Source of the DNA: a virus
IMG/VR virus record: IMGVR_UViG_3300025108_000015
Coordinates: 1-64,000 of that record
DNA length: 64,000 nucleotides
Direction: 5' to 3' (one strand)
In this document: piece after piece, positions 1 to 60,374 of the stretch
Position numbering within the stretch: position 1 is the first letter of the stretch
Layout: each line of letters opens with the position of its first letter
Made by a program: the position numbers and the translations under genes
Notes under the pieces: generated by a model
What the model was told of the DNA's origin: nothing
The model's input: the letters and a program-made list of their open reading frames with translations, nothing else
Databases searched by the model: none

Positions 1-765
1 AAGGCGTTCAAGGCCCTAAAGGTGTTCAAGGTGGAGTAGGTGATGAAGGTGCAGTAGGTGAATCACCTAAAGGTCAAAAAGGTGAAACGGGTGCTCAAGG
101 ACCATCAGGTATTTCAGGTGATAGTGGAAATAAAGGTATTCAAGGTTCTAAAGGTGTTCAAGGTCCTAAAGGTATAAAAGGTATAATTGGATTATCACCT
201 AAAGGTCAAAAAGGTGAAACTGGCGGTCAAGGTCCTAAAGGTGTTCAAGGTCCTAAAGGCGTTCAAGGCCCTAAAGGTGTTCAAGGTGGAGTAGGTGATG
301 AAGGTGCAGTAGGTGAATCACCTAAAGGTCAAAAAGGTGAAACGGGTGCTCAAGGACCATCAGGTATTTCAGGTGATAGTGGTGATAAGGGTGTTCAAGG
401 TTCTAAAGGTATTCAAGGTCCTAAAGGTATAAAGGGTATAATTGGATTATCACCTAAAGGTCAAAAAGGTGAAACTGGTGGTCAAGGTCCTAAAGGTGTT
501 CAAGGTCCTAAAGGCGTTCAAGGCCCTAAAGGTGTTCAAGGTGGAGTAGGTGATGAAGGTGCAGTAGGTGAATCACCTAAAGGTCAAAAAGGTGAAACGG
601 GTGCTCAAGGACCATCAGGTATTTCAGGTGATAGTGGTGATAAAGGTATTCAAGGTTCTAAAGGTATTCAAGGTCCTAAAGGTATAAAAGGTATAATTGG
701 ATTATCACCTAAAGGTCAAAAAGGTGAAACTGGCGGTCAAGGTCCTAAAGGTGTTCAAGGTCATA
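1..765 (+). repeat. Three near-identical 255-nt tandem repeats (85 aa) within the collagen gene
   Basis: aaggcgttcaaggccctaaaggtgttcaaggtggagtagg recurs at 1 and 256 and 511; the third unit diverges near its end. Confidence 0.92.
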
Positions 766-1022
766 AAGGTGCTCAAGGTCCTAAAGGTATACAAGGCAAT
801 ACTGGTGGTGAGGGTCAAAAAGGCCAGACTGGCGCTTCACCACTTGGTGAAACTGGTTCTAAAGGTCAACAAGGTGGTGTTGGTGATAAAGGTAACCAGT
901 TATCGGGTGGATATTTTGAATGGGATGAGTCTTTAGATAAGTTGGTATTCAAAGAATATGGTTATTCAAGTGGTGACCCTCTTTATGTAGTAGAAACTTA
1001 CTTCAGTGGTTCATCTTATTAA
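3..1022 (+). CDS. Collagen-like (Gly-X-Y) fibre protein, 5'-truncated by the window edge; probable tail or head fibre
   Basis: Not in the ORF track. The frame starting at nt 3 is open to TAA 1020-1022 and reads GVQGPKGVQGGVGDEGAVGESPKGQKGETGAQGPSGISGDSGNKGIQGSK..., ending in a ~43-aa non-collagen tail (GNQLSGGYFEWDESLDKLVFKEYGYSSGDPLYVVETYFSGSSY). Confidence 0.93.
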   Translation, partial: GVQGPKGVQGGVGDEGAVGESPKGQKGETGAQGPSGISGDSGNKGIQGSKGVQGPKGIKGIIGLSPKGQKGETGGQGPKGVQGPKGVQGPKGVQGGVGDEGAVGESPKGQKGETGAQGPSGISGDSGDKGVQGSKGIQGPKGIKGIIGLSPKGQKGETGGQGPKGVQGPKGVQGPKGVQGGVGDEGAVGESPKGQKGETGAQGPSGISGDSGDKGIQGSKGIQGPKGIKGIIGLSPKGQKGETGGQGPKGVQGHKGAQGPKGIQGNTGGEGQKGQTGASPLGETGSKGQQGGVGDKGNQLSGGYFEWDESLDKLVFKEYGYSSGDPLYVVETYFSGSSY

Positions 1023-1057
1023 ATAAATTTTCATATTTATAGTAAATAAGTTTAGTT

Positions 1058-1657
1058 ATGGAAAAGAATTTTAATTTTAGTGATAGTTCACGTAGCTTTG
1101 TAGACTACTCAAATTACTACTGGTTTAAAGATGGGTTTACTACTACCGAACTCGTTGATATAGAATCCCTCACAACTAATTTGGATTGGGTAGACGCTCA
1201 AACTGGTCAAGATGTTAAATCCAAAATCACCGATTATAGAAAATCAAAAATTAAATGGTGTCCACAATCAGACGAGTGGTATTGGGTATACGAAAAGTTG
1301 TCTGATATGATTAAGACCGCTAATAAAACCATGTGGGACTTTGAATTAACTCAAATGAGAGAGCAAATTCAATATACCGAATATTATAGTGGTGGTGGTC
1401 AGTACGACTGGCATATGGATTGTGGTATTGGTATACAAAACCAACGGAAGGTCTCAGTAACTGTTCAATTATCCGACCCATCTGAATATGAGGGTGGTGA
1501 TTTACAATTTAATATTGGTGGTAGTTGGATTACAGCACCACGTATAAAGGGAGCTGCTGTTATTTTTCCATCATTCTTTCTACACAGAGTAACACCTATA
1601 ACTAAAGGTACACGAAAGTCCTTTGTATTGTGGGTGGGTGGTGAACCATTTAAATAA
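1058..1657 (+). CDS. 2OG-Fe(II) oxygenase (PKHD/prolyl-hydroxylase-like)
   Basis: HxD (WHMD), distal His (FLHRVTP), Arg (GTRKS), YEGGDL motif. Confidence 0.9.
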   Translation: MEKNFNFSDSSRSFVDYSNYYWFKDGFTTTELVDIESLTTNLDWVDAQTGQDVKSKITDYRKSKIKWCPQSDEWYWVYEKLSDMIKTANKTMWDFELTQMREQIQYTEYYSGGGQYDWHMDCGIGIQNQRKVSVTVQLSDPSEYEGGDLQFNIGGSWITAPRIKGAAVIFPSFFLHRVTPITKGTRKSFVLWVGGEPFK

Positions 1658-1664
1658 ATAAAAT

Positions 1665-3359
1665 ATGAAGGTATTATTTGTATCAGGTTATCAAAAATCT
1701 AAATGGTCATTAGATACTTGGATTAACGAAGGTGCTGGTGGCACTGAGTATATGGTACTCAAATTAGCACACTTCTTCAAGTTAAACGGCCATGACGTTG
1801 TAGTTACTGGTGAAGTTGACACGGCCAACATCGATGGTGTTGACTATGTAGATTACGAGATACTTTCCAAAAAATATAAAAATAATAAATTTGATATTGT
1901 AATATGTACTAACTATATTCATTATATATTAGAGTTAGCTGAACATAATATTACATACGACAAATCTTACTTTTGGATTCATAATAATGAATACTATCCG
2001 TGGTGGAATGGTATGACATTAGACAACGATGGTTATGATTTCTTCTTAGATGATAGAATGACCAATATCGTATTGGTATCGAATTACCAAAAGGAAATAT
2101 TCTTAAAAAAATATCCTGAGTTAGAACACAAAGTCTTAGTAATCCCAAATGGTATAGACTTATCAGATTGGAGTGGTATATCTAACGAAAAGATACCAAA
2201 TAGATTTATATACTCATCAGCTCCAGATAGAGGATTAAAAACCCTACTAAGAATGTGGCCGAAGATAAAGGCGTTGTACTCAGACGCTACATTGATAGTA
2301 ACCTCACCACCATATGCACTTGAGTGGTATGATTCGTATAAAGATGATTTAGATGGTGTTACATTTTACGATGGGTTATCTCCAAAAAAATTATACAATG
2401 AGATTTCTAAATCCGAATATTGGCTGTACCCATCCAAGTATGATGAGACATTTTGTATAACGGCATTAGAAATGATGCAAGGTGGTGTTAAGATATTAAC
2501 AACTGATACTGGTAATCTTTTATCACTAATACAGGGGTGTGGTATAATCGAACCATCATCTAAAAAAGATAGTGATTTAGAAAGTTCACTTATACAACAA
2601 ATTGGTAGGTTGAAAAATTCACCATCACTATCTTCTAAAATATTAGATAATTCTAAAAATAAAGTAAAGCAATTTGACTTTCCAAAGATATATAAGAAAT
2701 GGATAGATACAATAGAGTTTAAAGTTATGCCTGATAAACTACATCCAGAATTGTATACATATTATGATAACGCTCATTCTTGGAAAGAACGATTCATAAC
2801 ATACTCAGCTAAAACTAAAGAATGGGATTTGATTGTAGATGAACCATTTACAAATACATTCTCATTTCCATTATTTACTCCTGAGTTTTGTAAAATGATT
2901 AGGGAAGAAGCTGAGTATGCAGATGCTTGGACAGTTGATAGGCATGAAAATTATCCAACCACTGATATGATATTAGAAACTATTGGAATGCAGGACATTT
3001 ATATGGATGTTCTAAAAGAGTATGTCATGCCACTTTCGATTCATATGTGGGAATTGGAAGGTAAGGGTTGGGATAACCTAACATCAGAAAACTTTTTAGC
3101 CAGATACACGCCAAATGCTCAAGGTCATTTATCAATACACCATGATATGTCTGACATTACGTGTTTAGTACAATTATCAAACCTCACTGAATATGAGGGT
3201 GGTGGTACATGGTTCAGACGACAAAAACAATTATTAAAAAATGATATAGGGTATGTAACTTTACATCCTGGAAATATAACCCATAAACATGGGGCAAGAG
3301 CGGTATCGTCAGGTAAAAGATATATCATAGTTTCCTTTATGAGAAATACGGAAAGATAA
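1665..3359 (+). CDS. GT4 (GT-B) glycosyltransferase fused to a PLOD-like procollagen lysyl hydroxylase domain
   Basis: N-half has GAGGTE, YSSAPDRGL and E-x7-E (ETFCITALE). From ~nt 2727: LHPELYTYYDNAHSWKERFI, FPLFTPEFC, ENYPTTDM, FLARYTP, IHHDMS, YEGGGTWF, HPGNITHKHG and KRYIIVSF, collinear with the recalled PLOD C-terminal domain. Confidence 0.88.
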   Translation: MKVLFVSGYQKSKWSLDTWINEGAGGTEYMVLKLAHFFKLNGHDVVVTGEVDTANIDGVDYVDYEILSKKYKNNKFDIVICTNYIHYILELAEHNITYDKSYFWIHNNEYYPWWNGMTLDNDGYDFFLDDRMTNIVLVSNYQKEIFLKKYPELEHKVLVIPNGIDLSDWSGISNEKIPNRFIYSSAPDRGLKTLLRMWPKIKALYSDATLIVTSPPYALEWYDSYKDDLDGVTFYDGLSPKKLYNEISKSEYWLYPSKYDETFCITALEMMQGGVKILTTDTGNLLSLIQGCGIIEPSSKKDSDLESSLIQQIGRLKNSPSLSSKILDNSKNKVKQFDFPKIYKKWIDTIEFKVMPDKLHPELYTYYDNAHSWKERFITYSAKTKEWDLIVDEPFTNTFSFPLFTPEFCKMIREEAEYADAWTVDRHENYPTTDMILETIGMQDIYMDVLKEYVMPLSIHMWELEGKGWDNLTSENFLARYTPNAQGHLSIHHDMSDITCLVQLSNLTEYEGGGTWFRRQKQLLKNDIGYVTLHPGNITHKHGARAVSSGKRYIIVSFMRNTER

Positions 3360-3404
3360 CCTACATACTATTTATATAATGACTAATAGTATTTAGGAGC
3401 ATAA

Positions 3405-4568
3405 ATGTCAGTAAACATTCCAATTTGGCCAGGTTCAGGCTCATTCGCAAGTGGTTCATCAACTCCATTTGGGTATTTTGATAGTGATACACAATTCCAA
3501 TCAGATGCCCCCAAAGTGGCTGAGTGGTGTGCTAAACGTTTGGGTTACCCTATAATCGATATTGAATTACAAGATATCAATATGTTCGCTTGCCTCGAAG
3601 AAGCTGTAAGTGAGTATTCATCTCAAGTAAACCAATATAGAGCAAAAGAGAATATGTTATCTATTCAAGGTTCTGACTTGGATTTGGATTTGACAAATAC
3701 AAATATGAACGCTAATATGCAAAACTTAGTAAATATTGCTAAGGATTATGGTACTGAGGCACTTAGTGGTGGTAAAGTAACAGTATATACTGGTTCATTT
3801 GAAATGGTTGCAGGTCAACAAATTTATGACCTTGGTGATGATAATAACGTAAACTTAGAAAATGGTGTAATTGCAAATGGTGTAACGCTTCGTAGAGTAT
3901 ACCACACACAACCACCAGCAATCATTAGATACTTTGACCCATTCGTAGGTACTGGTATGGGTTCACAACAAATGATGGAAACCTTTGGGTGGGGTAACTA
4001 CTCGCCAGGTGTTTCTTTTATGATGCAACCAATGTTTGATGACCTTTTAAGACTTCAAGCAATAGAATTCAACGATAAGATTCGTAAATCATCATATGGA
4101 TTCCATGTTGATGGTCAGAGAATTAGACTATATCCAATTCCAAGTGGTGGTGATACTGGCGCTAAGGTGTATTTTGATTATACATTAGATAGTGAGGTAA
4201 ATTCACCAATAGCAAACTCAAACGTAGTGAGTGATTTGTCTAACGCTCCATTTGGAAGATTAGTATACTCAAATATCAATTCATCAGGTAAACAATGGAT
4301 TGCTAGATACTCATTAGCATTGGCTAAAGAGATGTTAGGTGCAGTTCGTTCTAAGTTTTCTTCTATACCAATACCGGGTGCTGATGTAACACTTGATGGG
4401 TCTGACCTTCGTAACGAAGCATCTGCTGAAAAAGAAGCATTGATGACTCAATTGACTGAAATGTTGGAATCAACATCTCGTAGAGCATTGATGGAAGCGA
4501 GAAAAGAAGAATCGGAGTATTTAGAAGAAACTCTAAATAGAGTACCAAGACCAATTTTTATAGGATAA
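3405..4568 (+). CDS. Neck protein (T4 gp13-like)
   Basis: RLGYPIIDIELQD...ACLEEAVSEY and C-terminal IPGADVTLDG..LRNEA..EKE resemble gp13-like proteins; first gene of the neck-tail block; AGGAG RBS. Confidence 0.7.
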   Translation: MSVNIPIWPGSGSFASGSSTPFGYFDSDTQFQSDAPKVAEWCAKRLGYPIIDIELQDINMFACLEEAVSEYSSQVNQYRAKENMLSIQGSDLDLDLTNTNMNANMQNLVNIAKDYGTEALSGGKVTVYTGSFEMVAGQQIYDLGDDNNVNLENGVIANGVTLRRVYHTQPPAIIRYFDPFVGTGMGSQQMMETFGWGNYSPGVSFMMQPMFDDLLRLQAIEFNDKIRKSSYGFHVDGQRIRLYPIPSGGDTGAKVYFDYTLDSEVNSPIANSNVVSDLSNAPFGRLVYSNINSSGKQWIARYSLALAKEMLGAVRSKFSSIPIPGADVTLDGSDLRNEASAEKEALMTQLTEMLESTSRRALMEARKEESEYLEETLNRVPRPIFIG

Positions 4569-4572
4569 CCAA

Positions 4573-5100
4573 ATGGCACTATTCGGTGGACAACGAGATA
4601 TGGCTCTATTCAATAAAGTGAATAAAGAACTTATCAACGACATTATTGATACTGAAATCTACTATTACCAAGTAGCCTTGACTGATACAAAGTCAAATCT
4701 ATATGGTGAGGGTAAAGATAAGGTATTCAATCAGCCGATTAAAATACCATCTATTATTGAGAGGGGTCAGTCAAGTCAAATATCCGATGATTTCGGCCAA
4801 TCATACTCACGTGAAGTTCAGTTTAGATTTCTTCGTGATACTTTGGTTGAAAAAGCACTTGTGCCAGAGGTTGGTGACGTTATTGAGTGGAATGGTGAGT
4901 ATCATTTAATCGATGCCCAATATTCGTATCAATATGTTGCTGGTAAAAACCCACAAACATGGGATGGCGGTGATTCACAAGGTCTTAATGTATCCATTAT
5001 ATGTGATACACACGTTACACGTCAAACTTCTATCAAATTGGTAGATACTTATAAAGGTAATTCACGACAAAATGATAATGAAGTTCCATTAGGATTGTAA
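4573..5100 (+). CDS. Neck/head-closure protein (T4 gp14-like)
   Basis: Lies between gp13-like and gp15-like genes; LYGE...F and PEVGDVIEW motifs. Confidence 0.6.
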   Translation: MALFGGQRDMALFNKVNKELINDIIDTEIYYYQVALTDTKSNLYGEGKDKVFNQPIKIPSIIERGQSSQISDDFGQSYSREVQFRFLRDTLVEKALVPEVGDVIEWNGEYHLIDAQYSYQYVAGKNPQTWDGGDSQGLNVSIICDTHVTRQTSIKLVDTYKGNSRQNDNEVPLGL

Positions 5101-5101
5101 A

Positions 5102-5938
5102 ATGGCTCAAAAGTATAGAAACGAAGACAAATCTAAACCAAACCTTACTCAAACACAATCTTCAACATCAGAAGATGTGAAATTGAATAAGGCAAATCAG
5201 ATACGTAGGGACCAAGACAACGTAAAAAACGTTTCTGTTGGTATTTACGATGTTGATACTGCATTTAAGAACTTTTTAGAGGTAGATATTAAACCTACTG
5301 TTGAAGATGATGGTAGATTTTATCCCGTACCTGTAATGTATGCTTCTCCTGAGAAGTGGGCAAGTTCACAACGTGATGGTTTTATGAAAGACGATAACGG
5401 AATGTTATTAACACCTGTTATATCGTTCAAACGAAATAATCTTTCAATAAACACCGATTTAGCTAAATTAAAAGTAGCACAAAACGAAGATGCTCATCAA
5501 ATGTTCGAGAGAACGTATAGTAAGACCAATAGATACGACCAATTCTCAATATTAACTGGTCAATCTCCTAAAAAAGAATATATGTCGGTTGAAAGACCTG
5601 ATTATGTAAATTTAGAGTATGAAGTAGTTGTATGGTGTGATTATATGGAACAAGTCAATAAGATTGTTGAACAAATCGTATTTTTCCAAGGACGTTCCTT
5701 TGGTGATAGATATAAATTCCAAATAAAAGGTGAGTCGTATTCATTTGAAACCATATCTGAAATGGGACAAGATAGAATTACACGTGCCAATATCAGTCTT
5801 ACAGCGAAAGCGTATATAATGCCGGAATATGCCGGAATTTCAAATAATACTAAACGTAAGATATCGATAGGTAAGGTTTTGTGGAATACTAATATAACTG
5901 GTGAAAATGATTCTACAATACCGAGTGGTAATCAATAA
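5102..5938 (+). CDS. Tail terminator / sheath stabiliser (T4 gp15-like)
   Basis: VPVMYASPEKW, TPVISF, RPDYVNLEYEVVVW...QVNKIVEQI; precedes the sheath gene. Confidence 0.6.
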   Translation: MAQKYRNEDKSKPNLTQTQSSTSEDVKLNKANQIRRDQDNVKNVSVGIYDVDTAFKNFLEVDIKPTVEDDGRFYPVPVMYASPEKWASSQRDGFMKDDNGMLLTPVISFKRNNLSINTDLAKLKVAQNEDAHQMFERTYSKTNRYDQFSILTGQSPKKEYMSVERPDYVNLEYEVVVWCDYMEQVNKIVEQIVFFQGRSFGDRYKFQIKGESYSFETISEMGQDRITRANISLTAKAYIMPEYAGISNNTKRKISIGKVLWNTNITGENDSTIPSGNQ

Positions 5939-5977
5939 TTTTTACATATTTATATAATACAACAAATATAACAAGTT

Positions 5978-6259
5978 ATGGAAGAAAAGCAAATTATTAA
6001 ATTTACTGAAGACGAAGTAAGTAAAATTCAAACATTACAACAAAAAGTATTAACTATTAATACAAGAGTTGGTGAGGTTGAGATAGAAATAAATGGGTTA
6101 GAAACTGTATTTCAAGAGTTAAAACAACAAAAACAATCTCTTATATCTGAATATAAGCAATTAGGTACTCAAGAAACGGAACTAGCAGTTGAATTAAAAG
6201 AGAAATATGGTGAGGGGACTTATGATATTTCCAAAAATGAGTTCACGCCTACAAAATAA
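5978..6259 (+). CDS. Small coiled-coil hypothetical protein
   Basis: 93-aa E/K/Q-rich heptad-like ORF in its own intergenic setting. Confidence 0.6.
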   Translation: MEEKQIIKFTEDEVSKIQTLQQKVLTINTRVGEVEIEINGLETVFQELKQQKQSLISEYKQLGTQETELAVELKEKYGEGTYDISKNEFTPTK

Positions 6260-6329
6260 GTAGTCGTTTAGTTATTTTTTAATGTATTTATAATAAGGAA
6301 AACCGAAATTTATATTTTAGGAGAAGAAA

Positions 6330-8678
6330 ATGGCTGAAAGAATTGTAAGTCCTGGAGTTTTTACAAGAGAAAAAGACCTCTCATTTTTACCACAAGGTAT
6401 TGGTGAGATAGGTGCGGCACTTATCGGACAATCGATAAAGGGCCCTGCTTTCGTACCAACGAAAGTAGAATCATTTCAAGAATTCCAACAAAAATTTGGT
6501 GGTCTTACTGAGGATTCATATCTTCCGTATACCGCTCAATCGTATTTAGAAGAAGCAGGTACTGCAACTATCGTAAGAGTATTAGGTAAAGATGGATATA
6601 CCGCAAAACCAATCGCATTGGTAGTATCTTCATCAGCTGGTCAAAAGGTAGGTGCTTTACTACATCCGACTACTACTTTAGGTAGTGGTGATTTTGACGA
6701 CAGTATCATTACCGGTGTTAGTGCTTCTGCATTCTTACTAACCCTAAGTGGTAGTTCAGTAACAAGTGGTAGTGATGATGTAAATGTTAATTCAGCATCA
6801 CTTGACCCGGCAGACGAAAACTATATTACTAAGTTATATGGTTACTCTCCTAAGTCATCTAAAGATGCTTACACTCAATTAAACTTCTCAACATTCCAAG
6901 CAGAATCGCTTGCTAAAGATGGTGAAGTACCAACCGTATCACTTGTTAAAGTGGACGTTGACTATACTAACGCATATTCTGAAGCATCTACTCCATGGAT
7001 TAAATCACAAAAGGTAGCAGGAACTGCTGCTAACTTGATTAAATTCCATACATTATCTCATGGTAACTCTACTAACTACGAATTCAAAGTAGGTATTAGT
7101 AATATCAAACTTGCATCTGAGGTGCCAGGTTCTGAATATGGTACATTTAGTGTTGTAGTACGTAGAGTAGACACTGGAAAGATTCCTAATTCAATTTTCG
7201 GCCAAAGTGTTCAAGATTCTGATACAAGACCAAATATTATAGAAGAATTTCAAGGTGTAAATCTTGACCCTAACTCACCAAACTACATCAAGAGAGTAAT
7301 TGGTGACAAATACATTACAGTTGATGATAATGGTAAATTAACTTCAAATGGTGATTATCCTAACGCATCCGCTCATATTAGAGTATCAGTTTCATCTGAT
7401 GTAGATGCTGGGTCAATCGACTCAACACTTGTACCATTTGGATTTGGTAAATTAACGTCACCATTACACGAAACTTACGACCTACCTTCTCCAACTTATA
7501 ATGTATCTCAGTCACTCGCTGGTGAATATAATAAGAGAGTATTTTTTGGTTATGATTTTGACTTTACGTCAACTGACAACTTAAACTTCCTACAACCACT
7601 TCCAGGTTCAAATGTTGAAAAAGTAGGTAATGACTTTGATTTGGCAGATTGTCACTCAAACGGGTCTACTATTACATTATCATCTGATATAGATGCTAAG
7701 AAGTTCTTAGTTCCATTCCAAGGTGGTTTCGATGGATTCGAACCAAATAGAGTGGTAAATGTAGGTAAGGATATTATTGCCGGTAACAACCAAGGTATGG
7801 ATATGTCATCAGCTACCGCTGCTGGTACATTAGCATATAGAAAAGCTATCAACTCAATCTCTAATCCAGATGAGTTCGATATCAATATGGTAGTACTTCC
7901 AGGTGTAATCAATAGACTACACTCTTCAGTAACCACATTCGCTAAAGATATGTGTGAAGATAGATTAGATTGTTTCTACGTAATGGATGCTGGTGCATAT
8001 CAAGATTCTATTGCAACTGTAAACAACTCACTTACTTCATTCGACTCAAACTATGTTGCTACTTATCACCCATGGGTTAAAATCCTTGATACTGATAAGA
8101 ACAAGCCAGTATGGGTTCCGCCAAGTGTTGTTCTACCAGGCGTTATCGCATTCAATGACTCGGTTGCTGCTGAATGGTACGCTCCCGCTGGTTTGAATCG
8201 TGGTGGTCTTCCAAATGTAATCGAAGTTAAGACACGTCTTACTCACGATGAGAGAGATACACTATATACGGCCCGTATTAACCCAATCGCTACGTTCCCT
8301 GGACAAGGTGCTACGGTATTCGGTCAAAAGACATTACAAGCTAAACCATCAGCATTGGATAGAATCAATGTAAGAAGATTGTTAATCGCAGTTAAGAAAT
8401 ACATCGCATCTTCAACAAGATACTTGGTATTTGAAAATAACACCGCTGCAACAAGAAATAGATTCTTGTCAATCGTTAATCCTTACTTAGAATCAATTCA
8501 ACAAAGACAAGGTTTATACACATTTAAAGTGGTAATGGATGATTCCAACAACACTCCAGATGTGATTGATAGAAACATTATGGTAGGGGAAATTTACTTA
8601 CAACCAACGAAGACTGCTGAATTCATTGTTCTTGATTTCAACATACTTCCAACTGGCGCTGCATTCCCTGAGGCATAA
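6330..8678 (+). CDS. Contractile tail sheath protein (gp18-like)
   Basis: SPGVFTREKDLS at the N-terminus; WVPPS, WYAPAGLNRG, INPIATFPGQG, FGQKTLQ, DRINVRRLL, LQPTKTAEFI. Confidence 0.97.
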   Translation: MAERIVSPGVFTREKDLSFLPQGIGEIGAALIGQSIKGPAFVPTKVESFQEFQQKFGGLTEDSYLPYTAQSYLEEAGTATIVRVLGKDGYTAKPIALVVSSSAGQKVGALLHPTTTLGSGDFDDSIITGVSASAFLLTLSGSSVTSGSDDVNVNSASLDPADENYITKLYGYSPKSSKDAYTQLNFSTFQAESLAKDGEVPTVSLVKVDVDYTNAYSEASTPWIKSQKVAGTAANLIKFHTLSHGNSTNYEFKVGISNIKLASEVPGSEYGTFSVVVRRVDTGKIPNSIFGQSVQDSDTRPNIIEEFQGVNLDPNSPNYIKRVIGDKYITVDDNGKLTSNGDYPNASAHIRVSVSSDVDAGSIDSTLVPFGFGKLTSPLHETYDLPSPTYNVSQSLAGEYNKRVFFGYDFDFTSTDNLNFLQPLPGSNVEKVGNDFDLADCHSNGSTITLSSDIDAKKFLVPFQGGFDGFEPNRVVNVGKDIIAGNNQGMDMSSATAAGTLAYRKAINSISNPDEFDINMVVLPGVINRLHSSVTTFAKDMCEDRLDCFYVMDAGAYQDSIATVNNSLTSFDSNYVATYHPWVKILDTDKNKPVWVPPSVVLPGVIAFNDSVAAEWYAPAGLNRGGLPNVIEVKTRLTHDERDTLYTARINPIATFPGQGATVFGQKTLQAKPSALDRINVRRLLIAVKKYIASSTRYLVFENNTAATRNRFLSIVNPYLESIQQRQGLYTFKVVMDDSNNTPDVIDRNIMVGEIYLQPTKTAEFIVLDFNILPTGAAFPEA

Positions 8679-8725
8679 TTGTAGAATTAGACTATTTATT
8701 AGAAAGAGATAATAGGAGATTATAA

Positions 8726-9214
8726 ATGGCACAGCTATTAGACCCAAATGAAATTATGTTCACCAACTTCGAACCGAAGATGTCAAATCGGTTCATTATG
8801 TATATTGAAGGAATTCCTGCATACTTGGTGAAAACCGCTGCAAGACCTGAAATTACAAATGGTAAGGTGACTATTGACCATATCAACACCCGTAGATATG
8901 TAAAAGGTCGTTCTGAGTGGAGTGACTTATCAGTAACTTTATACGATCCAGTAGTACCATCTGCTGCACAAGCTACTATGGAGTGGGTAAGACTACACCA
9001 CGAATCGGTAACTGGTCGTGATGGTTATTCTGACTTCTACAAAAAAGATATCACATTTAACAGTTTGGGTCCTGTTGGTGATAAAGTAGAAGAGTGGACA
9101 CTAAAAGGAGCATTTATCCAATCTGCTAATTTCTCTGACATGGATTATAGTGGTGAAGATATCGCTACTGTTGAAATGACATTGACTTACGATTACGCAA
9201 TACTACAATACTAA
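8726..9214 (+). CDS. Tail tube protein (gp19-like)
   Basis: 162 aa directly after the sheath; NRFIMYI, W.DLSVTLYD, EEWTLKGAF, TLTYDYA. Confidence 0.92.
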   Translation: MAQLLDPNEIMFTNFEPKMSNRFIMYIEGIPAYLVKTAARPEITNGKVTIDHINTRRYVKGRSEWSDLSVTLYDPVVPSAAQATMEWVRLHHESVTGRDGYSDFYKKDITFNSLGPVGDKVEEWTLKGAFIQSANFSDMDYSGEDIATVEMTLTYDYAILQY

Positions 9215-9240
9215 AATATTGATTGTAAAATGAAAACTGA

Positions 9241-9269
9241 AAACCCTCACGTAATTGTGGGGGTTTTTT
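9241..9269 (+). terminator. Intrinsic terminator after the tail tube gene
   Basis: aaaccctcac-gtaatt-gtgggggttt followed by further T residues. Confidence 0.8.
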
Positions 9270-9320
9270 AATTTAAAAATAATACTTATATAAGGTTAAC
9301 CAAATAATAAAGGAGAATAT

Positions 9321-9566
9321 ATGTTATCAATCATTAGAGACGCGTCTACAAAAGTAATCGTATTCGCATCATACGGAAACGTAACACAATCAGAAACCGG
9401 TGTAACTTGTGATGTAATCAGTGACCTTTCAGGTGAAGATTATGGTACAGCTGCTGGTTATGAAAAAGTAGAAGTTGACATGCAATTACCGGAGTCTTAC
9501 GCGGGTGGAACACACGCACTTATAGAAGACGGCGCTGGTTATAGATTTGACGCAGTAAGTGGATAA
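9321..9566 (+). CDS. Hypothetical protein in a stand-alone cassette
   Basis: 81 aa, AGGAG RBS at 9311, flanked by two terminators. Confidence 0.7.
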   Translation: MLSIIRDASTKVIVFASYGNVTQSETGVTCDVISDLSGEDYGTAAGYEKVEVDMQLPESYAGGTHALIEDGAGYRFDAVSG

Positions 9567-9593
9567 TATCACTTTATACTTTTAAAATTTTAG

Positions 9594-9620
9594 AAACCCT
9601 CACCATTGGTGGGGGTTTTT
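9594..9620 (+). terminator. Intrinsic terminator, near-copy of 9241-9269
   Basis: aaaccctcacc-att-ggtgggggttt followed by TT. Confidence 0.8.
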
Positions 9621-9684
9621 GTATTATAAATGCCTGAGTTACATACTTATATATGGTTAACCAATAGAATGACAAGGAAAAGTT

Positions 9685-10554
9685 ATGAAAGATTTACAAG
9701 ACGACTATCAAATGTCTAATGAAGAGGCAGTTGAACAATTAAAAAAAGCACATGAGGTGAAACAAGTAAGTGATTACAAGTTTCCAACCGAAATTATCGA
9801 ACTACCATCTCGTGGTTTGGTTTATTCTAAAGACAATCCATTATCGAGTGGTAAAGTAGAGATGAAGTACATGACCGCTAGAGAAGAGGATATTCTAACC
9901 ACTCAGTCATATATCAAAGATGGTTCGGTTTTAGACCGATTATTTCAATCTCTAATTGTATCAAATGGTGATGGAACACCTGTTAAGTATGTAGACCTAA
10001 TAGTGGGTGACAAAAATGCTATTATGATAGCAGCACGAATCTTGGGGTATGGTAAAGAATATAAAGTCGAAGTAAATGACCCGTTTAGTAATAATACTCA
10101 AAATGAAATCATTGACCTTACTCAATTTGATAATAAAGAATATGATGGTTCACATCAATTAGAACAAAACAAAAACGAATTCGAGTTAGAACTTCCACAA
10201 TCTAAGAGAAAACTGACATTTATGATTACAACCGAATCTAAGGATAGGAAAGTAAAGCATATACTCAAAGAAGAACGTAAGAAAAATCGTAAACTAAAAA
10301 ACGAAACAAGTTCTGAACTAACCACCCGACTAAAGCAAACAATTTTATCAGTAGATGGTGACTATGACCAGCGTATAATTGATAATTTTGTAGATAATGA
10401 GTTATTTGCTCAAGATAGTAGAGCTCTTAGAACATATATTAAAAAAGTTTCTCCTGATATGGATTTAGAATGGGAATTCATTTCGGAGGAAACTGGGGAA
10501 GGGAGGTTTATGTCCTTACCTATGGACGTGACCTTTTTTTGGCCTGAAGATTAA
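9685..10554 (+). CDS. Baseplate hub assembly / tail assembly chaperone (T4 gp26-like)
   Basis: IELPSRGLVY, KYMTAREEDIL, LIVGDKNAIMIAARILGYG and C-terminal FFWPED; upstream of the tape measure gene. Confidence 0.75.
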   Translation: MKDLQDDYQMSNEEAVEQLKKAHEVKQVSDYKFPTEIIELPSRGLVYSKDNPLSSGKVEMKYMTAREEDILTTQSYIKDGSVLDRLFQSLIVSNGDGTPVKYVDLIVGDKNAIMIAARILGYGKEYKVEVNDPFSNNTQNEIIDLTQFDNKEYDGSHQLEQNKNEFELELPQSKRKLTFMITTESKDRKVKHILKEERKKNRKLKNETSSELTTRLKQTILSVDGDYDQRIIDNFVDNELFAQDSRALRTYIKKVSPDMDLEWEFISEETGEGRFMSLPMDVTFFWPED

Positions 10555-10750
10555 TTACAGACAGCAACTACATTCACATATTTTTGATTTAATTTATCAC
10601 GGAAATGGTGGGTTTACTTGGAACGATGTGTATAATATGCCAGTTTGGGCCCGTAAGTTTTACATCAGTAAAATTTTAGAATTTAAACAAGCTGAAAAAA
10701 AAGCAAATACAGAATCTATAAATAAATCACAAAGGGGAACACGAAAATAG
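10532..10750 (+). CDS. Startless +1-frame ORF overlapping the end of the chaperone gene (gp51-like or frameshift extension)
   Basis: Not in the ORF track. Open from the TGA at 10529 to TAG 10748-10750: PFFGLKINYRQQLHSHIFDLIYHGNGGFTWNDVYNMPVWARKFYISKILEFKQAEKKANTESINKSQRGTRK. The first in-frame ATG is mid-domain; the frames overlap at a T7 run (10534-10540). Confidence 0.7.
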   Translation, partial: PFFGLKINYRQQLHSHIFDLIYHGNGGFTWNDVYNMPVWARKFYISKILEFKQAEKKANTESINKSQRGTRK

Positions 10751-10760
10751 TTCCCCTTTG
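10730..10760 (+). terminator. Stem-loop, possible terminator
   Basis: Perfect 11-bp inverted repeat caaaggggaac / gttcccctttg with a 9-nt loop; weak U-tract. Confidence 0.55.
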
Positions 10761-10791
10761 ATATTTATATTAAGATAACAACAGGAGATAT

Positions 10792-10962
10792 ATGAATTTT
10801 TTACAAAAACTTGTCGCTCGCAAAGTTTTAAAAGGTATGGAGAAGTTGGCTCAAAAAGACCCGGCTGTCAATAAAAGCTTTAACGATTTAGCTAAAGCGT
10901 CACGCCAACTTAAAATAGACATCGATAATCACATCAAAAACTCTAAAGATACTTTTAAATAA
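10792..10962 (+). CDS. Small basic hypothetical protein (56 aa)
   Basis: Not in the ORF track. AGGAG at 10783, ATG at 10792: MNFLQKLVARKVLKGMEKLAQKDPAVNKSFNDLAKASRQLKIDIDNHIKNSKDTFK. Confidence 0.65.
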   Translation: MNFLQKLVARKVLKGMEKLAQKDPAVNKSFNDLAKASRQLKIDIDNHIKNSKDTFK

Positions 10963-10981
10963 GTAATATTGGATAACCCAA

Positions 10982-13102
10982 ATGGCAAAGACTAATAAGC
11001 AGAGAAACGAAGAGAGTAAGGCTCGTAAGCAGGCTATGGAGGACAATGACTTCCTTAATAGCCAAGCCGACCTACTTAATCGTAAAATGCAAGACCAAAT
11101 TGAAAATGCCAAGGAGTTGGGTAAGCTTAGAAAAAACTTACTAAGTGGAATGGTTGATGAGGTTGATAATCTTGAGCAACAAAGGGAATTATTAGAAGAC
11201 TACGAAACGTCAATGAAAGAGTTGGTGGATGGTAGAACTACACATGGTCGAAATTTAAAAGAAGAAGTAGATACACTCAAGGATGTAATCAAGACTGAAG
11301 AACGGAGGCGGGACTTACAAGGTGAACTTGAGACCAAAGCAAATGGTATGTTAGATGGTCTTGAAGGTCAAATCAAAAATATCCCACTCATTGGGGGATT
11401 ATTAGCATCTACAATGGACTTTGGTGGATTAAAAAAACAAATGGGTGGTATTATGAAGGGTATTACCCAACAATTCGTAATGTTAACTGCTGCGGGAGTT
11501 CCCGCTGGTAAGGCAATTGCAATGTCGTTTAGGTCAGCAATCCCATCTATAATATCATTTGGGGCAAGTTTATGGGCCGCAATTTCACCACTCCTACCGA
11601 TTATTCTTCCTATTATAGCCGCAATGGTTCTATTGAAAAAAGCACTTGGAGTTGACCAACAAGTAGCTGATTTAAGTCGTGAGATGGGTATTGCTAATAG
11701 TCAAGCTAAAGAAATGGTTACCAACTTTAATAATATGTCTGTTATGAGTGGTAACTTGAATATTAATACCAAGAGTCTGATTGAGTCTCAAAAACAACTC
11801 GCAGAGTCCATAGGAATGACTGCACAATATTCCGCCAAAATGTTACAAGACCAAATTCACTTGACTAAGTATATGGGTATGTCTGGTGAAGAGGCTGCAA
11901 ACTTCCAAAAGATGTCAGCTGCATCTGGCATGAGTGTTCGTGATATGCAAACCGAAGTAGCATCGACAGTTGGTGGTTTTAATGAACTCACAGGTGCTTC
12001 AGTCGACTTTGCCGGTGTACTAAAAGACATATCCAACTTATCTTTAGAAATGCGTTCTACATTCAAGGGTAATGTTAAAGAGATGGCTATGGCAGTTACT
12101 CAAGCGAAGGCATTGGGTACTACATTACAAGAATCATCGGATGCCGCAGATAATCTTCTTAATATGGAAAGTTCACTTCAAGCCGAGATGAAAGCAAGAG
12201 TGTTAACTGGTGTTAACCTCAATAACACTGCTATCCGTGCAGCACAACTAGCAGGTGAACAAGGTGAAGTATTACGACTCCAAGCAAAACAAATGAGTGA
12301 GATTGGTGATGTGAGTCAAAAGTCACGAATCCAACAAAAGGCAATTGCAGATGCAATGGGTATGTCAGTTGACCAAATGTTGAAGATGAATGAACAGCAA
12401 ATGGTTATGAATAAGTTGGGTGTTAAAAACTTAGACAATGTAAGTAAGGAACAACTAATGAGTGCCGGTCTATCTGATGAAAAGGCCAAGCAAATGATAC
12501 TTGATAGAGAGAAACAATCTCAACAAGAAAAGATGAGTGCTGCAATGGATAAGATGAATGCAGCTCTTGCTGAAGCAGGTGCTATTATTCTTCCAGTTGT
12601 TGGTTACTTGGTTGACCTGATTCTACCAACGATAATTAATTCGTTCAAAATGGTAGGTGCGATATTCAAACTTCTTAGAGGGTTTATTACATTATTTACT
12701 GACCCAATTGAGGGTATTAAGATGATGGGTCAGGCAATTTATGACTTTGTTGTAGCACCATTTCAATGGGTTGGTGACACGATTGGTGCTCTATTTGGGG
12801 GTGGTGGCACTAAATCCACTGGATATGACGAGGGTGCATCCGACTCCATAGATGATGGTGTAATTACACCAAGTGGTGATGTAATCAAAACCAATCCGGC
12901 AGACTTTATTATGGCAACTACCAATCCAGCAGCAATGGCCGGTAAATTAGCAGGTGATAGTGCCGGTGGTGGTATTGACTATGACAGGCTGGCAGCTGCA
13001 ATGGGTAACCAACCTCTTCAAATTGTAGTAGATGGTAGAGTAATTAGTGAAATTACTAAGAAACAATCAATGAATAAATCATTTAATAAGCAGATGGGAT
13101 AA
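10982..13102 (+). CDS. Tape measure protein
   Basis: Long helical Ala/Gly/Met-rich protein with two hydrophobic stretches, located between the chaperone and baseplate genes. Confidence 0.8.
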   Translation: MAKTNKQRNEESKARKQAMEDNDFLNSQADLLNRKMQDQIENAKELGKLRKNLLSGMVDEVDNLEQQRELLEDYETSMKELVDGRTTHGRNLKEEVDTLKDVIKTEERRRDLQGELETKANGMLDGLEGQIKNIPLIGGLLASTMDFGGLKKQMGGIMKGITQQFVMLTAAGVPAGKAIAMSFRSAIPSIISFGASLWAAISPLLPIILPIIAAMVLLKKALGVDQQVADLSREMGIANSQAKEMVTNFNNMSVMSGNLNINTKSLIESQKQLAESIGMTAQYSAKMLQDQIHLTKYMGMSGEEAANFQKMSAASGMSVRDMQTEVASTVGGFNELTGASVDFAGVLKDISNLSLEMRSTFKGNVKEMAMAVTQAKALGTTLQESSDAADNLLNMESSLQAEMKARVLTGVNLNNTAIRAAQLAGEQGEVLRLQAKQMSEIGDVSQKSRIQQKAIADAMGMSVDQMLKMNEQQMVMNKLGVKNLDNVSKEQLMSAGLSDEKAKQMILDREKQSQQEKMSAAMDKMNAALAEAGAIILPVVGYLVDLILPTIINSFKMVGAIFKLLRGFITLFTDPIEGIKMMGQAIYDFVVAPFQWVGDTIGALFGGGGTKSTGYDEGASDSIDDGVITPSGDVIKTNPADFIMATTNPAAMAGKLAGDSAGGGIDYDRLAAAMGNQPLQIVVDGRVISEITKKQSMNKSFNKQMG

Positions 13103-51853: not shown

Positions 51854-52678
51854 ATGAAAAAAACTATTGGTATTATAGGTAATGGCTTCGTTGGAGAGTC
51901 ACAAGCATTCGCGTTTTCCCCAACTACGAATGTTCGTATATTCGACATAGACCCCTTAAAAGCTACTCATACTCTTGAAGAAACATTAGAACAAGAATTT
52001 GTGTTTGTATGCTTACCCACACCAATGACTATGGATGGGATTCAAGATATTTCGTATATTGAGAACTTTTTCGAATCAATCACACCTAATGATGATACGA
52101 TATTCATTATTAAGTCTACGGTCTTGCCAGGTACTACACAAGGTTTGATTGATAAGTATGGGTACAATATAATTTTCTCTCCGGAGTTTTTGACCGAACG
52201 TACTGCGAAGTTGGATATGTTGACTCAATCACGAATCATCTTTGGTGGTAGTGAAGACTTGACTAAACGGGTAGAAGAATTGTTTACGGATAGATTTATG
52301 AATCGACACATCATCCATACTAATTCAACTACGGCAGAATACATCAAGTATATGAATAATACATTTTTTGCAACAAAAGTTGCAGTGATGAACGAGTTCT
52401 ATCGATTGAGTCAATGTATTGATGTTGATTGGAAAACGGCACTATATGGATTTGCTGCAGATGGTAGAGTCGGAGATAGTCATTTACACGTACCTGGTCC
52501 TGATGGTAAGTTGGGGTATGGTGGTACTTGTTTCCCCAAAGATGTAAACGCTATTATTAATTTTGCTAAAGAGCATGGAGTTTCTATGAACGCCATTGAA
52601 GGTGGTTGGGAAACTAATGTAGAGGTTAGGCCTGAACGTGATTGGGAACAATTGGAAGGTAGAGCAGTTTCTAAATGA
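51854..52678 (+). CDS. UDP-glucose/GDP-mannose dehydrogenase family protein (lacks the C-terminal domain)
   Basis: IGIIGNGFVG, CLPTP, IKSTV.PGT, SPEFL, KYMNNTF, GYGGTCFPKD. Confidence 0.9.
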   Translation: MKKTIGIIGNGFVGESQAFAFSPTTNVRIFDIDPLKATHTLEETLEQEFVFVCLPTPMTMDGIQDISYIENFFESITPNDDTIFIIKSTVLPGTTQGLIDKYGYNIIFSPEFLTERTAKLDMLTQSRIIFGGSEDLTKRVEELFTDRFMNRHIIHTNSTTAEYIKYMNNTFFATKVAVMNEFYRLSQCIDVDWKTALYGFAADGRVGDSHLHVPGPDGKLGYGGTCFPKDVNAIINFAKEHGVSMNAIEGGWETNVEVRPERDWEQLEGRAVSK

Positions 52679-53514
52679 TTTTCTGGAGAACATACGATAA
52701 TAAAGTAATTCCTATACAAGAGGTTGAAGCGTTAGGATTTCCTTTAAGTGACCCTTCCTATATTACTGATGAATACTTGGAAGGTAAAAACTTTGTAATC
52801 CTAAGAACTTGTTTTGGTGTTGGGGATTGGGGAATTATCTCCGCATTCCCACGAAAATTAAAGGAGAAGTATTCCGATTGTAAGGTTTGGATACCATCAC
52901 CAAAATTGTTGAGAGAGATGTTTGGTCACTTAGAACAAAATTGGTCAGCGTGGTCAGACCCGCTTCAAGTAGTTCATACTATTTTTGATAACAACCCCTA
53001 TATAGATGGGTTTGTAGATTCATTTGAAGGGGAGGTGTTCAATGACCACTACCGAATCTATGGTGATGAAGATGTACCACTTATGGAAGAGTTGTTGAGG
53101 TTCTGGCAGTTCGAGGAGTTCGATGATATTGAACCCGAACTATACTTTTCAAAAGAAGAAATTGAGTTAGGTGACCAAATCATAAAAGAACATTGTGATG
53201 GAGACTTCGGAACTCTTCTAATATCAAATAGATTTGATGGTGTTGGGGTTGAAAAAATCCAACAAAAAATTAATGAGTATGACCTACCTATGTTCTATTG
53301 GACTAAATCTACGGATGTAGGGTTAAATTTCAAAGAAGCATTAGATATGAGACACATCAATACTCGTATTCAGTTATACATCAAAACAAAGGCAAAGTTT
53401 AATGTGGGTAACCAAACTGGAGTGAATGATACCATCGCAAATTATTCACCAACCTATACAGTTGCCAGGCCTAATCTTGGGTCAAATTTAGTTAGAAGTG
53501 AGATTTACTTATGA
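52675..53514 (+). CDS. Putative GT9-like glycosyltransferase
   Basis: GVGDWGIISAFPRKLKEKY..CKVW, NNPYID, NVGNQTG resemble heptosyltransferase-type GT-B motifs. Confidence 0.45.
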   Translation: MIFWRTYDNKVIPIQEVEALGFPLSDPSYITDEYLEGKNFVILRTCFGVGDWGIISAFPRKLKEKYSDCKVWIPSPKLLREMFGHLEQNWSAWSDPLQVVHTIFDNNPYIDGFVDSFEGEVFNDHYRIYGDEDVPLMEELLRFWQFEEFDDIEPELYFSKEEIELGDQIIKEHCDGDFGTLLISNRFDGVGVEKIQQKINEYDLPMFYWTKSTDVGLNFKEALDMRHINTRIQLYIKTKAKFNVGNQTGVNDTIANYSPTYTVARPNLGSNLVRSEIYL

Positions 53515-54185
53515 GAGTAGTAGTATATACAGCGATTATTGGTGGGTATGACACACTCAATGAACCACTCGTAAAACCAGATGGTGTGGACTTTGTTTGT
53601 TTTACCGATAGGGAGATGGAGTCTGACACTTGGGAGATTCGTAAGATTACGTCATTATATGAGGACTCTACAAGAACTGCACGAAAGTATAAGGTTTTAC
53701 CACATCGTTGGTTTACTGAATATGATGTCAGTATATGGGTTGATGGTAATAAACTTATAGAGGGTAATGTTTTAGATTATATCACACAGTTAGGGGGGAG
53801 TAACCTTTCGTTGTTTGACCATATGGAATGTTTTGACAAAAGAAATTGTGTATATCAAGAGGCAAATGCTATTTTTAGGTTAGGACAAGAGTCGGGTAAA
53901 ACTTACAAAGATAACCCATTAACTATAAAATCCCAAATGGAACGATATCTTTCTGAAGGATATCCACAAAATAATGGATTGGCATTTACTTGCGTTGTGG
54001 TTCGGAAACACAATGACTCAGATACTATCAATCTGATGGAAAATTGGTGGACTGAAATCAAATATGGTTCTAAGAGAGACCAATTAAGTTTTGATTACGT
54101 TGCTTGGAAAAATAACTATGATTTTAAGTATCTAAGTGGTGATGGTAGAAACGATGGTATAATAACACATAAATCACATTTATGA
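53511..54185 (+). CDS. DUF616-like (TOD1/MUCI70) glycosyltransferase
   Basis: VVYTAIIGGYD, DFVCFTD, ARKYKVLPH, SIWVDGN, RDQLSFDY..WK. Confidence 0.8.
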   Translation: MRVVVYTAIIGGYDTLNEPLVKPDGVDFVCFTDREMESDTWEIRKITSLYEDSTRTARKYKVLPHRWFTEYDVSIWVDGNKLIEGNVLDYITQLGGSNLSLFDHMECFDKRNCVYQEANAIFRLGQESGKTYKDNPLTIKSQMERYLSEGYPQNNGLAFTCVVVRKHNDSDTINLMENWWTEIKYGSKRDQLSFDYVAWKNNYDFKYLSGDGRNDGIITHKSHL

Positions 54186-59835: not shown

Positions 59836-60374
59836 GAGTACTAGCAATAATTCCAGCAAAGCTGGATTCTAAAAGACTAAAACACAAGAACATTAGAGAG
59901 ATTGATGGTAAACCCATGTTCCTACATTCAGTTGATTATGCAAACGCAAGTCAATACCATGTAGAGGTTATCGTATCATCTGAGAGTGATGTTGTTGGAG
60001 AGATTTGTAATCAACACGAAGTAAGATTCCACAAAAGGACTGCTGAGTTGTGTGGTGATGTTGAGGTTGTGGATGTATATGAATATGTAATCAGTCAGAT
60101 TAAACACGAAGAGTATGACCTTGTGGTTGGATTACAACCCGATAATCCAAATAGGTCACATACTTTGGATGAGTGTATTGACTATATGATTGAGAATAAT
60201 TATGATGACTTGATTACAGTAAATCCATCTTACAAGAGAAGTGGTTCAGTTCGTATATTTAAATACGACTATCTAAAAGCAGGTAAAGTCAGTAAAAGAC
60301 TTGGGTGTATCAAAGATGATGCAACCGATATACACTATGAATCTGACTTGGAAAGTGTAAAAAATAATTTATGA
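59832..60374 (+). CDS. neuA: Acylneuraminate cytidylyltransferase-like protein (short)
   Basis: LAIIPAKLDSKRLKHKNIR.I.GKP, VSSES, LQPDNPNR. Confidence 0.78.
   Translation: MRVLAIIPAKLDSKRLKHKNIREIDGKPMFLHSVDYANASQYHVEVIVSSESDVVGEICNQHEVRFHKRTAELCGDVEVVDVYEYVISQIKHEEYDLVVGLQPDNPNRSHTLDECIDYMIENNYDDLITVNPSYKRSGSVRIFKYDYLKAGKVSKRLGCIKDDATDIHYESDLESVKNNL

Follow-up and report, generated by a model that had tools for sequence, protein, structure and literature searches.

The stretch analysed here, hereafter the window, covers 64,000 nucleotides (bases 3125-67124) of the 178,076-bp IMG/VR virus record IMGVR_UViG_3300025108_000015 (G000), and its subject is a single open reading frame (ORF) at 1665..3359 (+ strand) that encodes 564 residues plus stop and joins a glycosyltransferase (GT) domain of family GT4 to a lysyl hydroxylase (LH) domain of the PLOD/L230 type. 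The ORF lies between a collagen-like fibre gene, the 3' part of which occupies 3..1022 (+), followed by a small 2-oxoglutarate (2OG)-Fe(II) oxygenase gene (1058..1657, +), and a gp13-like neck or head-tail adaptor gene (3405..4568, +). Pfam signatures, phmmer searches of the PDB and an AlphaFold2 model of the whole fusion (mean predicted local distance difference test, pLDDT, 89.9) define its organization, and the assignment of both domains is near certain, the LH domain having been set against solved 2OG oxygenases that include P4H, OGFOD1, PiuC and TET enzymes.

The two domains of the fusion protein

The LH domain (residues 355-564; 2727..3356, +) is identified independently by sequence and by structure. 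In phmmer searches of PDB sequences, the whole fusion aligns with human LH3 (E 6e-29; residues 357-559 opposite chain positions 501-713) and with the LH domain of mimivirus L230 (E 6e-22; residues 377-559). The isolated domain, searched against 177,635 distinct sequences, finds the same two proteins (E 1.5e-29 for LH3, 1.4e-22 for L230) and no other oxygenase up to E 10, the next rows (E >0.1) being antibody chains. Eight short segments that a first-pass annotation had matched in order to LH3 are all present, in that order, at residues 359-558, and the phmmer alignment places the LH3 segments that it named opposite them. For the structural comparison, an AlphaFold2 model of the domain (pLDDT 95) was aligned with VIA-align to 48,161 representative solved chains. 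L230 is the best match (Z 26.5, 1.7 Å, 184 aligned residues, 32% identity) together with LH3 residues 522-738 in that entry's own numbering (Z 25.6, 2.0 Å, 204 aligned residues, 34% identity), and the latter alignment takes in the helical part upstream of the jelly-roll core, as the same annotation had proposed. The next family after L230 and LH3 is represented by the P. putida prolyl 4-hydroxylase (P4H; Z 15.6), which with OGFOD1, PiuC and the algal and PBCV-1 P4H enzymes spans Z 15.0-15.6 at 12-21% identity, while NgTET1 reaches Z 11.8. The domain therefore sides with the PLOD-type hydroxylases and not with TET/JBP or generic P4H enzymes, and the E-values together with the 10-Z-unit gap to the next structural family exclude a chance match. 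The nearest eukaryotic Atlas clusters by structure carry the names PLOD1 or procollagen-lysine 5-dioxygenase (template modelling, TM, score 0.90-0.91). An NCBIfam scan gave weak sub-threshold matches only. The Pfam family PF25238 (OGFOD2-like) matches residues 358-462 (E 1.8e-9, 38.1 bits against a cut-off of 31), but because it also matches the PLOD-type proteins P0254 and P0243, its name is no argument against PLOD kinship.

The catalytic residues of the LH domain, as predicted from the alignment to LH3, are intact. The sequence H492-H493-D494 (3138..3146, +) aligns with the HHD of LH3, where H492 and D494 supply the H-x-D of the Fe(II) triad. Its distal ligand, H542 (3288..3290, +), lies opposite the second His of THYHEG in LH3. 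Ten residues further on lies the predicted 2OG-binding Arg, R552 (3318..3320, +), in a motif RYI(I/M)VSF that aligns with RYIMVSF of LH3. H492, D494, H542 and R552 are invariant in 42 full-length fusions, and the triad and the 2OG-binding Arg are likewise invariant in 40 LH domains that include stand-alone forms (H492 and D494 corresponding to domain positions H138 and D140). For LH domains of the PLOD/L230 type a homodimer is described in which the subunits meet tail to tail and a second Fe(II) site lends stability (PMC5802723).

The N-terminal domain (residues 1-350; 1665..2714, +) has the GT-B fold and belongs to family GT4, a retaining family. Three Pfam signatures of the GT4 type span residues 60-293, each above its cut-off: PF13439 (Glyco_transf_4; 30.3 bits against 28.5), PF13692 (Glyco_trans_1_4; 30.0 against 27) and PF00534 (Glycos_transf_1; 29.0 against 26.4). 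In the fusion model pLDDT is mostly above 90 over residues 1-350, and Foldseek matches this part to two-Rossmann GT-B/GT4 structures with TM scores, normalised to the target, of 0.65-0.73. These include PimA (2gej, TM 0.72), 7qsg (TM 0.69), a mycobacterial mannosyltransferase, MeManT, BshA, PglA and GtfA, and no PDB sequence matches the region at E <=0.01 in phmmer. Within the C-terminal Rossmann half lies the GT4 signature motif E261-x7-E269 (2445..2471, +), of which E269 is invariant among the 42 fusions and E261 at least 90% conserved. The first-pass annotation had named the partner a GT-B/GT4 enzyme with an E-x7-E motif, and the signatures, the motif and the fold matches all bear this out. 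In a Pfam scan the PLOD GT domain PF25342 is absent from the protein, whereas the PLOD-type control P0243 matches it (8.5e-49), and no match to PF01755 (GT25) occurs within the ORF. The phage protein also lacks the PLOD accessory domain.

Between the two domains, residues 354-356 (2724..2732, +) form the only segment of the fusion model with pLDDT below 50. This linker contains Met355, encoded at nucleotide 2727, so that the Met codon previously noted at the domain boundary does sit there.

The fibre, its neighbours and a distant GT25 gene

The record has 471-bp direct terminal repeats, about 35% G+C and nearly all of its genes on one strand. The fibre gene starts upstream of the window; read from the genome, the full ORF (G000:C1:910-4146) encodes 1078 residues, with a globular N-terminal part of about 240 residues, 253 G-X-Y triplets and a short C-terminal domain. 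The part within the window matches Pfam Collagen with E 1.9e-32, and PHROG tail-fibre families match the protein through its repeats. Lys occurs in the triplets 72 times at Y and never at X, and Pro 64 times at X and never at Y. Fibres of sister phages show the same Lys bias (Y/X counts of 205/6, 99/2, 35/0 and 27/0). The adjacency and this shared bias support the fibre as the candidate substrate of the fusion protein.

The gene between fibre and fusion encodes a 199-residue oxygenase resembling PiuC and PKHD proteins (PF13640, E 8e-14; PDB PiuC, E 2.7e-9; phrog_61, E 1e-35). Since Pro is confined to X in the fibre, the role of a classical collagen P4H, which acts at Y, would not fit this enzyme. 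Downstream of the fusion follow the gp13-like gene (phrog_211, E 8.5e-16), a gp15-like gene, the sheath gene (6330-8678), the tube gene (8726-9214) and baseplate genes, and the gp13-like counterparts in sister phages (387 residues) match PF26809, Phage_T4_gp13. This neighbour assigns the cassette to the module of virion structural genes. The fibre gene, placed directly ahead of the gp13-like one, takes the position of wac in T4. By its sheath protein the nearest named phage is Microcystis phage Mel-JY01 (57% identity), and megablast of window positions 1-12000 against GenBank phages gave no match.

In four sister phages whose fusion proteins are 51-61% identical to that of the window (loci L003, L006, L007 and L008) the order is conserved as fibre, PF13640 oxygenase, an optional GT2 gene, fusion, gp13, gp15 and sheath, the oxygenase being 200-201 residues long and in the same position in all four. 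The extra GT2 gene (GT-A fold, 430 residues) stands between oxygenase and fusion in three of them (L003:6682-8004, L006:6495-7787 and L008:6707-7999) and is missing from L007 and from the window, so the transferase content of the cassette varies between close phages. In L003 the collagen-like gene (1733-6099) is called as many tiny ORFs and appears interrupted after 385 residues, probably through assembly or frameshift trouble in the repeats and not for a biological reason.

A second glycosyltransferase of interest lies outside the window. About 100 kb from the cassette, a 251-residue ORF (G000:C1:105081-105836; L001:1492-2244) encodes a stand-alone member of GT25, an inverting family that includes ColGalT1. 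In the PDB it matches human ColGalT1 chains (E 7e-13) and nothing else, and some of its homologues are named 'collagen beta-1,O-galactosyltransferase' in JGI records. Because the genome has this separate ColGalT1-like enzyme, the fused GT4 domain can stand in for no more than one of the two transferase activities known from animals. A stand-alone GT25 ORF is present in each of nine large two-domain phage records (G000, G001-G005, G007, G008), while the 98%-complete genome G006, which has a three-domain form of the fusion, has GT25 inside the fusion only. This complementary pattern, the frequent covalent linkage of GT25 to LH and the nesting of stand-alone GT25 in the GT25 tree (both described below) make it likely, from sequence comparisons, that GT25 works in the same pathway as the LH fusion. 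A predicted complex of the fusion with the genome's GT25 scored 0.00 in a run without controls, which counts neither for nor against binding. In the phrog_61 profile the GT25 ORF matches the first part (positions 56-174) and both the LH domain and the PiuC-like oxygenase match the last part (396-630), a pattern that suggests that GenBank phages already hold GT25-oxygenase fusions filed as '2OG-Fe(II) oxygenase'.

Sugar metabolism is represented by a run of sugar-nucleotide and glycan genes at window positions 51854-63947. The run encodes a UDP-Glc/GDP-Man dehydrogenase, a TOD1/MUCI70 GT-like protein, a UDP-GlcNAc 2-epimerase, a Gfo/Idh/MocA oxidoreductase, a weakly matching GT2, two NAD epimerase/dehydratases and a 2-hydroxyacid dehydrogenase. 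These genes suggest that unusual activated sugars are produced by the phage itself, and such sugars could feed glycosylation of the virion, as in giant viruses.

Architectures and trees of the family

Homologues of the fusion are widespread in marine data, where they form more than 100 clusters of 555-600 residues at 40-98% identity, and 308 IMG/VR contigs carry a relative. The Atlas cluster containing the family has 229 members, 97% of them viral, and in tblastn no GenBank phage record covers >=80% of the fusion. A pattern-based scan of 185,579 species genomes, which undercounts, returned 12 loci, five with full fusions (Granulosicoccaceae, a Chromatiales symbiont, Rhodobacteraceae and Aliishimia) and the rest with LH only. 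The family looks mainly viral.

We sorted 285 homologues by domain queries with the GT4 and LH domains of the window protein, the genome's own GT25 and the N-terminal region of a choanoflagellate PLOD. GT4-LH, the architecture of the window protein, accounts for 94, and 87 have LH with no detected partner. In 55 proteins of about 790 residues GT25 is inserted between GT4 and LH (GT4-GT25-LH), and 23 of about 450 residues are GT25-LH. The remainder comprises 14 PLOD-type proteins, nine in which GT25 is fused to a PLOD-type body and three with split LH matches. The choanoflagellate region has no phmmer match in GT4-LH proteins. One of the nine with a PLOD-type body, the metagenomic protein P0243 (919 residues), carries a ColGalT1-like GT25 (E 6e-53) and a complete LH3-like GT-A/accessory/LH body (E 4e-102) in one chain, and is in effect a covalent version of the human LH3-ColGalT1 complex. 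The three-domain form P0060 comes from a sister phage and sits at the same locus; its LH domain is 76% identical to that of the window protein and its chain includes the GT25 module that the window protein lacks.

All trees are quick IQ-TREE reconstructions with Shimodaira-Hasegawa-like approximate likelihood ratio (SH-aLRT) support and are unrooted, midpoint roots being used for drawing only. The LH-domain tree (121 rows) gathers every PLOD-type architecture into a single clade, with support 99, from which the window protein is excluded; the latter belongs to a clade with nine members (support 96), placed among proteins of the GT4-GT25-LH and GT25-LH architectures. The concatenated GT4+LH tree (70 rows, 564 columns) has three groups: a two-domain clade with the bacterial chromosomal copies (support 100), a phage two-domain group that includes the window protein and within which the three-domain pair P0060/P0057 is nested, and a large three-domain clade (support 100). 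The phage and bacterial relatives (GT4-GT25-LH, GT25-LH and stand-alone LH) share the LH clade of the window protein, and the first of these also its GT4 domain. On the concatenated tree two- and three-domain forms are set apart by branches with support 100, and the presence of GT25 requires at least three state changes. In the GT25-domain tree (91 rows) the stand-alone GT25 proteins form a single clade, nested among GT25 domains that are fused to LH. P0060/P0057 have a GT25 that falls with the one of the large three-domain clade (support 96) and not with the stand-alone clade, and on this ground an origin of the pair by fusion of a stand-alone GT25 is rejected.

The GT4-LH junction is independent of the PLOD design, since the GT fold differs, PF25342 is absent and the PLOD-type clade excludes the clade of the window protein. 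It is at the same time one form of a modular phage and bacterial family that also contains GT4-GT25-LH and GT25-LH proteins, and not a stand-alone invention. The first-pass annotation had suggested an independently assembled GT plus LH architecture with a bearing on PLOD origins. The junction is indeed separate from that of PLOD, but the idea has to be narrowed because GT25, which serves in animals and in L230, is employed in the wider family too. The LH phylogeny that it called for sets the PLOD-type clade apart and, being unrooted, is silent on origin, so that neither a direction of descent to eukaryotic and giant-virus PLODs nor the ancestry of two- versus three-domain forms can be read from it or from the other trees.

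A predicted route to a hydroxylated and glycosylated fibre

Human LH3 (PLOD3; PDB 6fxk, 8zgc) and PLOD1-2 provide the closest animal comparison. Their LH domains are homologous to that of the phage over the full length, with the Fe triad and the 2OG-binding Arg in common. LH3, too, unites a hydroxylase and a glycosyltransferase in one chain, and it acts on Lys at the Y position of collagen. It differs in its N-terminal GT-A domain (PF25342) and in its accessory domain; the phage protein carries GT-B/GT4 instead and is without an accessory domain. LH3 also works in the secretory pathway, whereas the phage protein lacks a signal peptide, so that its site of action must be the cytoplasm of the bacterium. 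In animals the finished glycan is Glc-alpha-1,2-Gal-beta-O-Hyl (Hyl, hydroxylysine), with the second step performed by the GT-A domain of LH3 or, in mimivirus, by R699, both of which extend the first sugar on hydroxylysine by retaining transfer (PMC9546862). R699 and the LH3 domain are GT-A-fold PLOD-GT homologues to which the GT-B phage GT4 is unrelated in sequence, and functional equivalence between them, as a galactosyl-hydroxylysine glucosyltransferase, is at most suggested by analogy.

The best structural match of the phage LH domain, L230 of Acanthamoeba polyphaga mimivirus (PDB 6ax6), is itself a viral bifunctional Lys hydroxylase and glycosyltransferase that acts on the virus's own collagen-like proteins, hydroxylating and glucosylating viral collagen Lys (PMC9614988, PMC9546862), and reviews describe it as the first collagen-glycosylating enzyme outside animals. 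Its N-terminal transferase is a GLT25D1-like GT25 (PMC9614988) separated from LH by a long middle region, whereas in the window virus GT4 is fused and GT25 is separate; further, L230 comes from a giant virus of eukaryotes and the window virus is a tailed phage. The sole solved relative of the phage GT25, human ColGalT1/GLT25D1 (PDB 9evj, 8zgc), is an endoplasmic reticulum protein with two GT domains, while the phage GT25 is a single minimal domain with a predicted transferase activity. The covalent GT25-LH linkage of related phage proteins parallels the non-covalent complex of human LH3 and ColGalT1 (8zgc).

Taken with the gene order and the Lys bias, these likenesses make it quite likely that the fibre is hydroxylated and glycosylated in one form or another, and collagen-style lysine hydroxylation and glycosylation probably occur in phages too. 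We lean, with rather less assurance, towards the ORF at 1665-3359 encoding a cytoplasmic enzyme with two functions by which a T4-like marine myovirus would modify collagen, and towards a three-step route to a similar degree. In this route the LH domain, with Fe(II), 2OG and O2, would hydroxylate the Y-position Lys of X-Lys-Gly triplets in the fibre encoded upstream, in the cytoplasm and before or during trimer formation. The ColGalT1-like GT25 encoded elsewhere in the genome would then, in the most likely order, add the first, beta-linked hexose to hydroxylysine, and the fused GT4 would extend this sugar, a task that in LH3 falls to a non-homologous GT-A domain. The fibre so modified would be a virion appendage at the neck, in keeping with the wac-like position of its gene.

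Several observations weigh against this route. The GT25 gene is remote from the cassette and lies among small unrelated ORFs, and the complementary pattern of GT25 presence depends on a single three-domain genome, G006. The nearest solved GT4 folds belong to enzymes with lipid, small-molecule, glycan and protein substrates, donor and acceptor not being readable from the sequence. Lys at Y might stem from rules of triple-helix stability instead of enzyme specificity. Among the bacterial chromosomal copies, P0108 and P0086 are solitary, with no adjacent collagen-like gene. Collagen-like ORFs do occur elsewhere in carrier genomes, in mixed register: Lys is at Y in two of them (Aliishimia and the Chromatiales genome), at X in Thiolinea, and absent in one Granulosicoccaceae genome. 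PF01391 matches are found in all five bacterial carrier genomes but also in 4 of 14 control genomes. In the Aliishimia sp. metagenome-assembled genome (L120), a carrier of the fusion, a 667-residue collagen-like ORF (G012:C1:about 1496400-1497840) has 64 Lys at Y and one at X (GDK/GEK), and this ORF is 1.3 Mb away from the fusion gene.

The main rival to the three-step route is a two-step scheme resembling that of L230, in which LH makes hydroxylysine, the fused GT4 adds the first and only sugar and the distant GT25 serves some other purpose. Sharing of one chain by GT4 and LH, with GT25 some 100 kb off, fits such a scheme, as does the solitary two-domain gene of bacterial genomes; L230 alone performs both steps on viral collagen (PMC9614988), and GT4 enzymes such as GtfA glycosylate proteins directly. 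Yet GT25 is inserted between GT4 and LH in many relatives and many others are GT25-LH proteins with no GT4, the stand-alone GT25 clade is nested among LH-fused GT25 domains, every two-domain phage genome examined has a stand-alone GT25, and both in animals and in L230 the first transfer to hydroxylysine is made by the GT25 family. On this evidence we regard the two-step scheme as unlikely, though it deserves to be kept in view.

Less probable still is that the LH-like domain acts on something other than the fibre, such as another virion protein, a host protein or a small molecule, with GT4 glycosylating the product and the adjacency to the fibre gene reflecting no more than placement in the late module. 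The solitary bacterial copies would be explained in this way, and the Thiolinea genome, whose gene is LH-only, has its collagen-like Lys at X and not Y; the PF25238 region is common to OGFOD2, and many phage 2OG oxygenases have no assigned role (phrog_61). Against this, the closest characterised relatives of the domain are, by a wide margin, two collagen Lys hydroxylases, the cassette adjoins a gene of the collagen-like kind even in phages with no more than about 51% identity, and the strict Lys-at-Y pattern fits an X-Lys-Gly specificity.

The position of Met355 exactly in the low-confidence linker, together with the abundance of stand-alone LH proteins of about 200-250 residues, raises the further idea that the gene yields two polypeptides, the full fusion and a free LH domain started at nucleotide 2727. 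This is very improbable, and a functional internal start is judged unlikely from sequence features, since Met355 is confined to the closest relatives (elsewhere the position is N, Q, L, T, G, R, D, I or K), the ORF holds 16 in-frame Met codons, 2727 is preceded by no clear AGGAG-type ribosome-binding site, and a promoter/terminator scan of 900-3500 found fewer promoter-like sites (7) than the shuffle mean (14.6) and lends no support to an internal transcript; the AGTT directly before the ATG at 2727, which it shares with the four accepted starts at 1058, 5978, 9685 and 16160, is a weak hint in its favour. As a separate observation, the starts at 3405, 6330 and 8726 have an AGGAG site, which those preceded by AGTT lack, and the two kinds of start may reflect two classes of translation initiation context.

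The general idea behind the three-step route, that 2OG dioxygenases encoded beside collagen-like or tail-collar proteins modify them, was put forward by Iyer, Abhiman, de Souza and Aravind in 2010, for systems containing beta-hydroxylase, phytanoyl-CoA hydroxylase and JmjC families and sulfotransferases rather than PLOD-type LH or GT fusions (PMC2938197). The same work predicted that prokaryotic collagen-modifying 2OG systems predate those of animals. The full-text literature searched contains no account of a bacteriophage with a PLOD-type LH. Atlas clusters of stand-alone viral relatives already bear the automatic name 'procollagen-lysine 5-dioxygenase family protein', and JGI gives the fusion no more than the name 'glycosyltransferase involved in cell wall biosynthesis'. 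The similarity is thus open to annotation pipelines and, to judge from these searches, undescribed. New here are the different transferase fold, the different host domain and the modular three-enzyme version of a bifunctional collagen LH and glycosyltransferase.

Hydroxylation of collagen Lys and glycosylation of the resulting hydroxylysine are treated as animal chemistry. The present finding places a close relative of the animal LH, with intact catalytic residues, in a widespread group of phages and in a few bacteria, beside a candidate substrate, and offers a test case for the repeated combining of LH, GT25 and second-transferase modules. It also supplies the prokaryotic and phage sequences needed for a rooted phylogeny of PLOD origins. 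A more far-reaching proposal, that tailed phages of marine bacteria carry a complete, modular hydroxylysine-glycan pathway (LH, GT25 and a GT4 in the role of the LH3 glucosyltransferase) for their own fibres and that animals and giant viruses inherited their LH-GT25 partnership from a prokaryotic and phage pool, with no invention in eukaryotes, is speculative and in our view rather doubtful. Predicted to fold and act in the bacterial cytoplasm, the enzymes are candidate tools for hydroxylating and glycosylating recombinant collagen produced in E. coli, where a gap has been pointed out (PMC9546862). For the phages themselves they predict a new kind of virion fibre modification.

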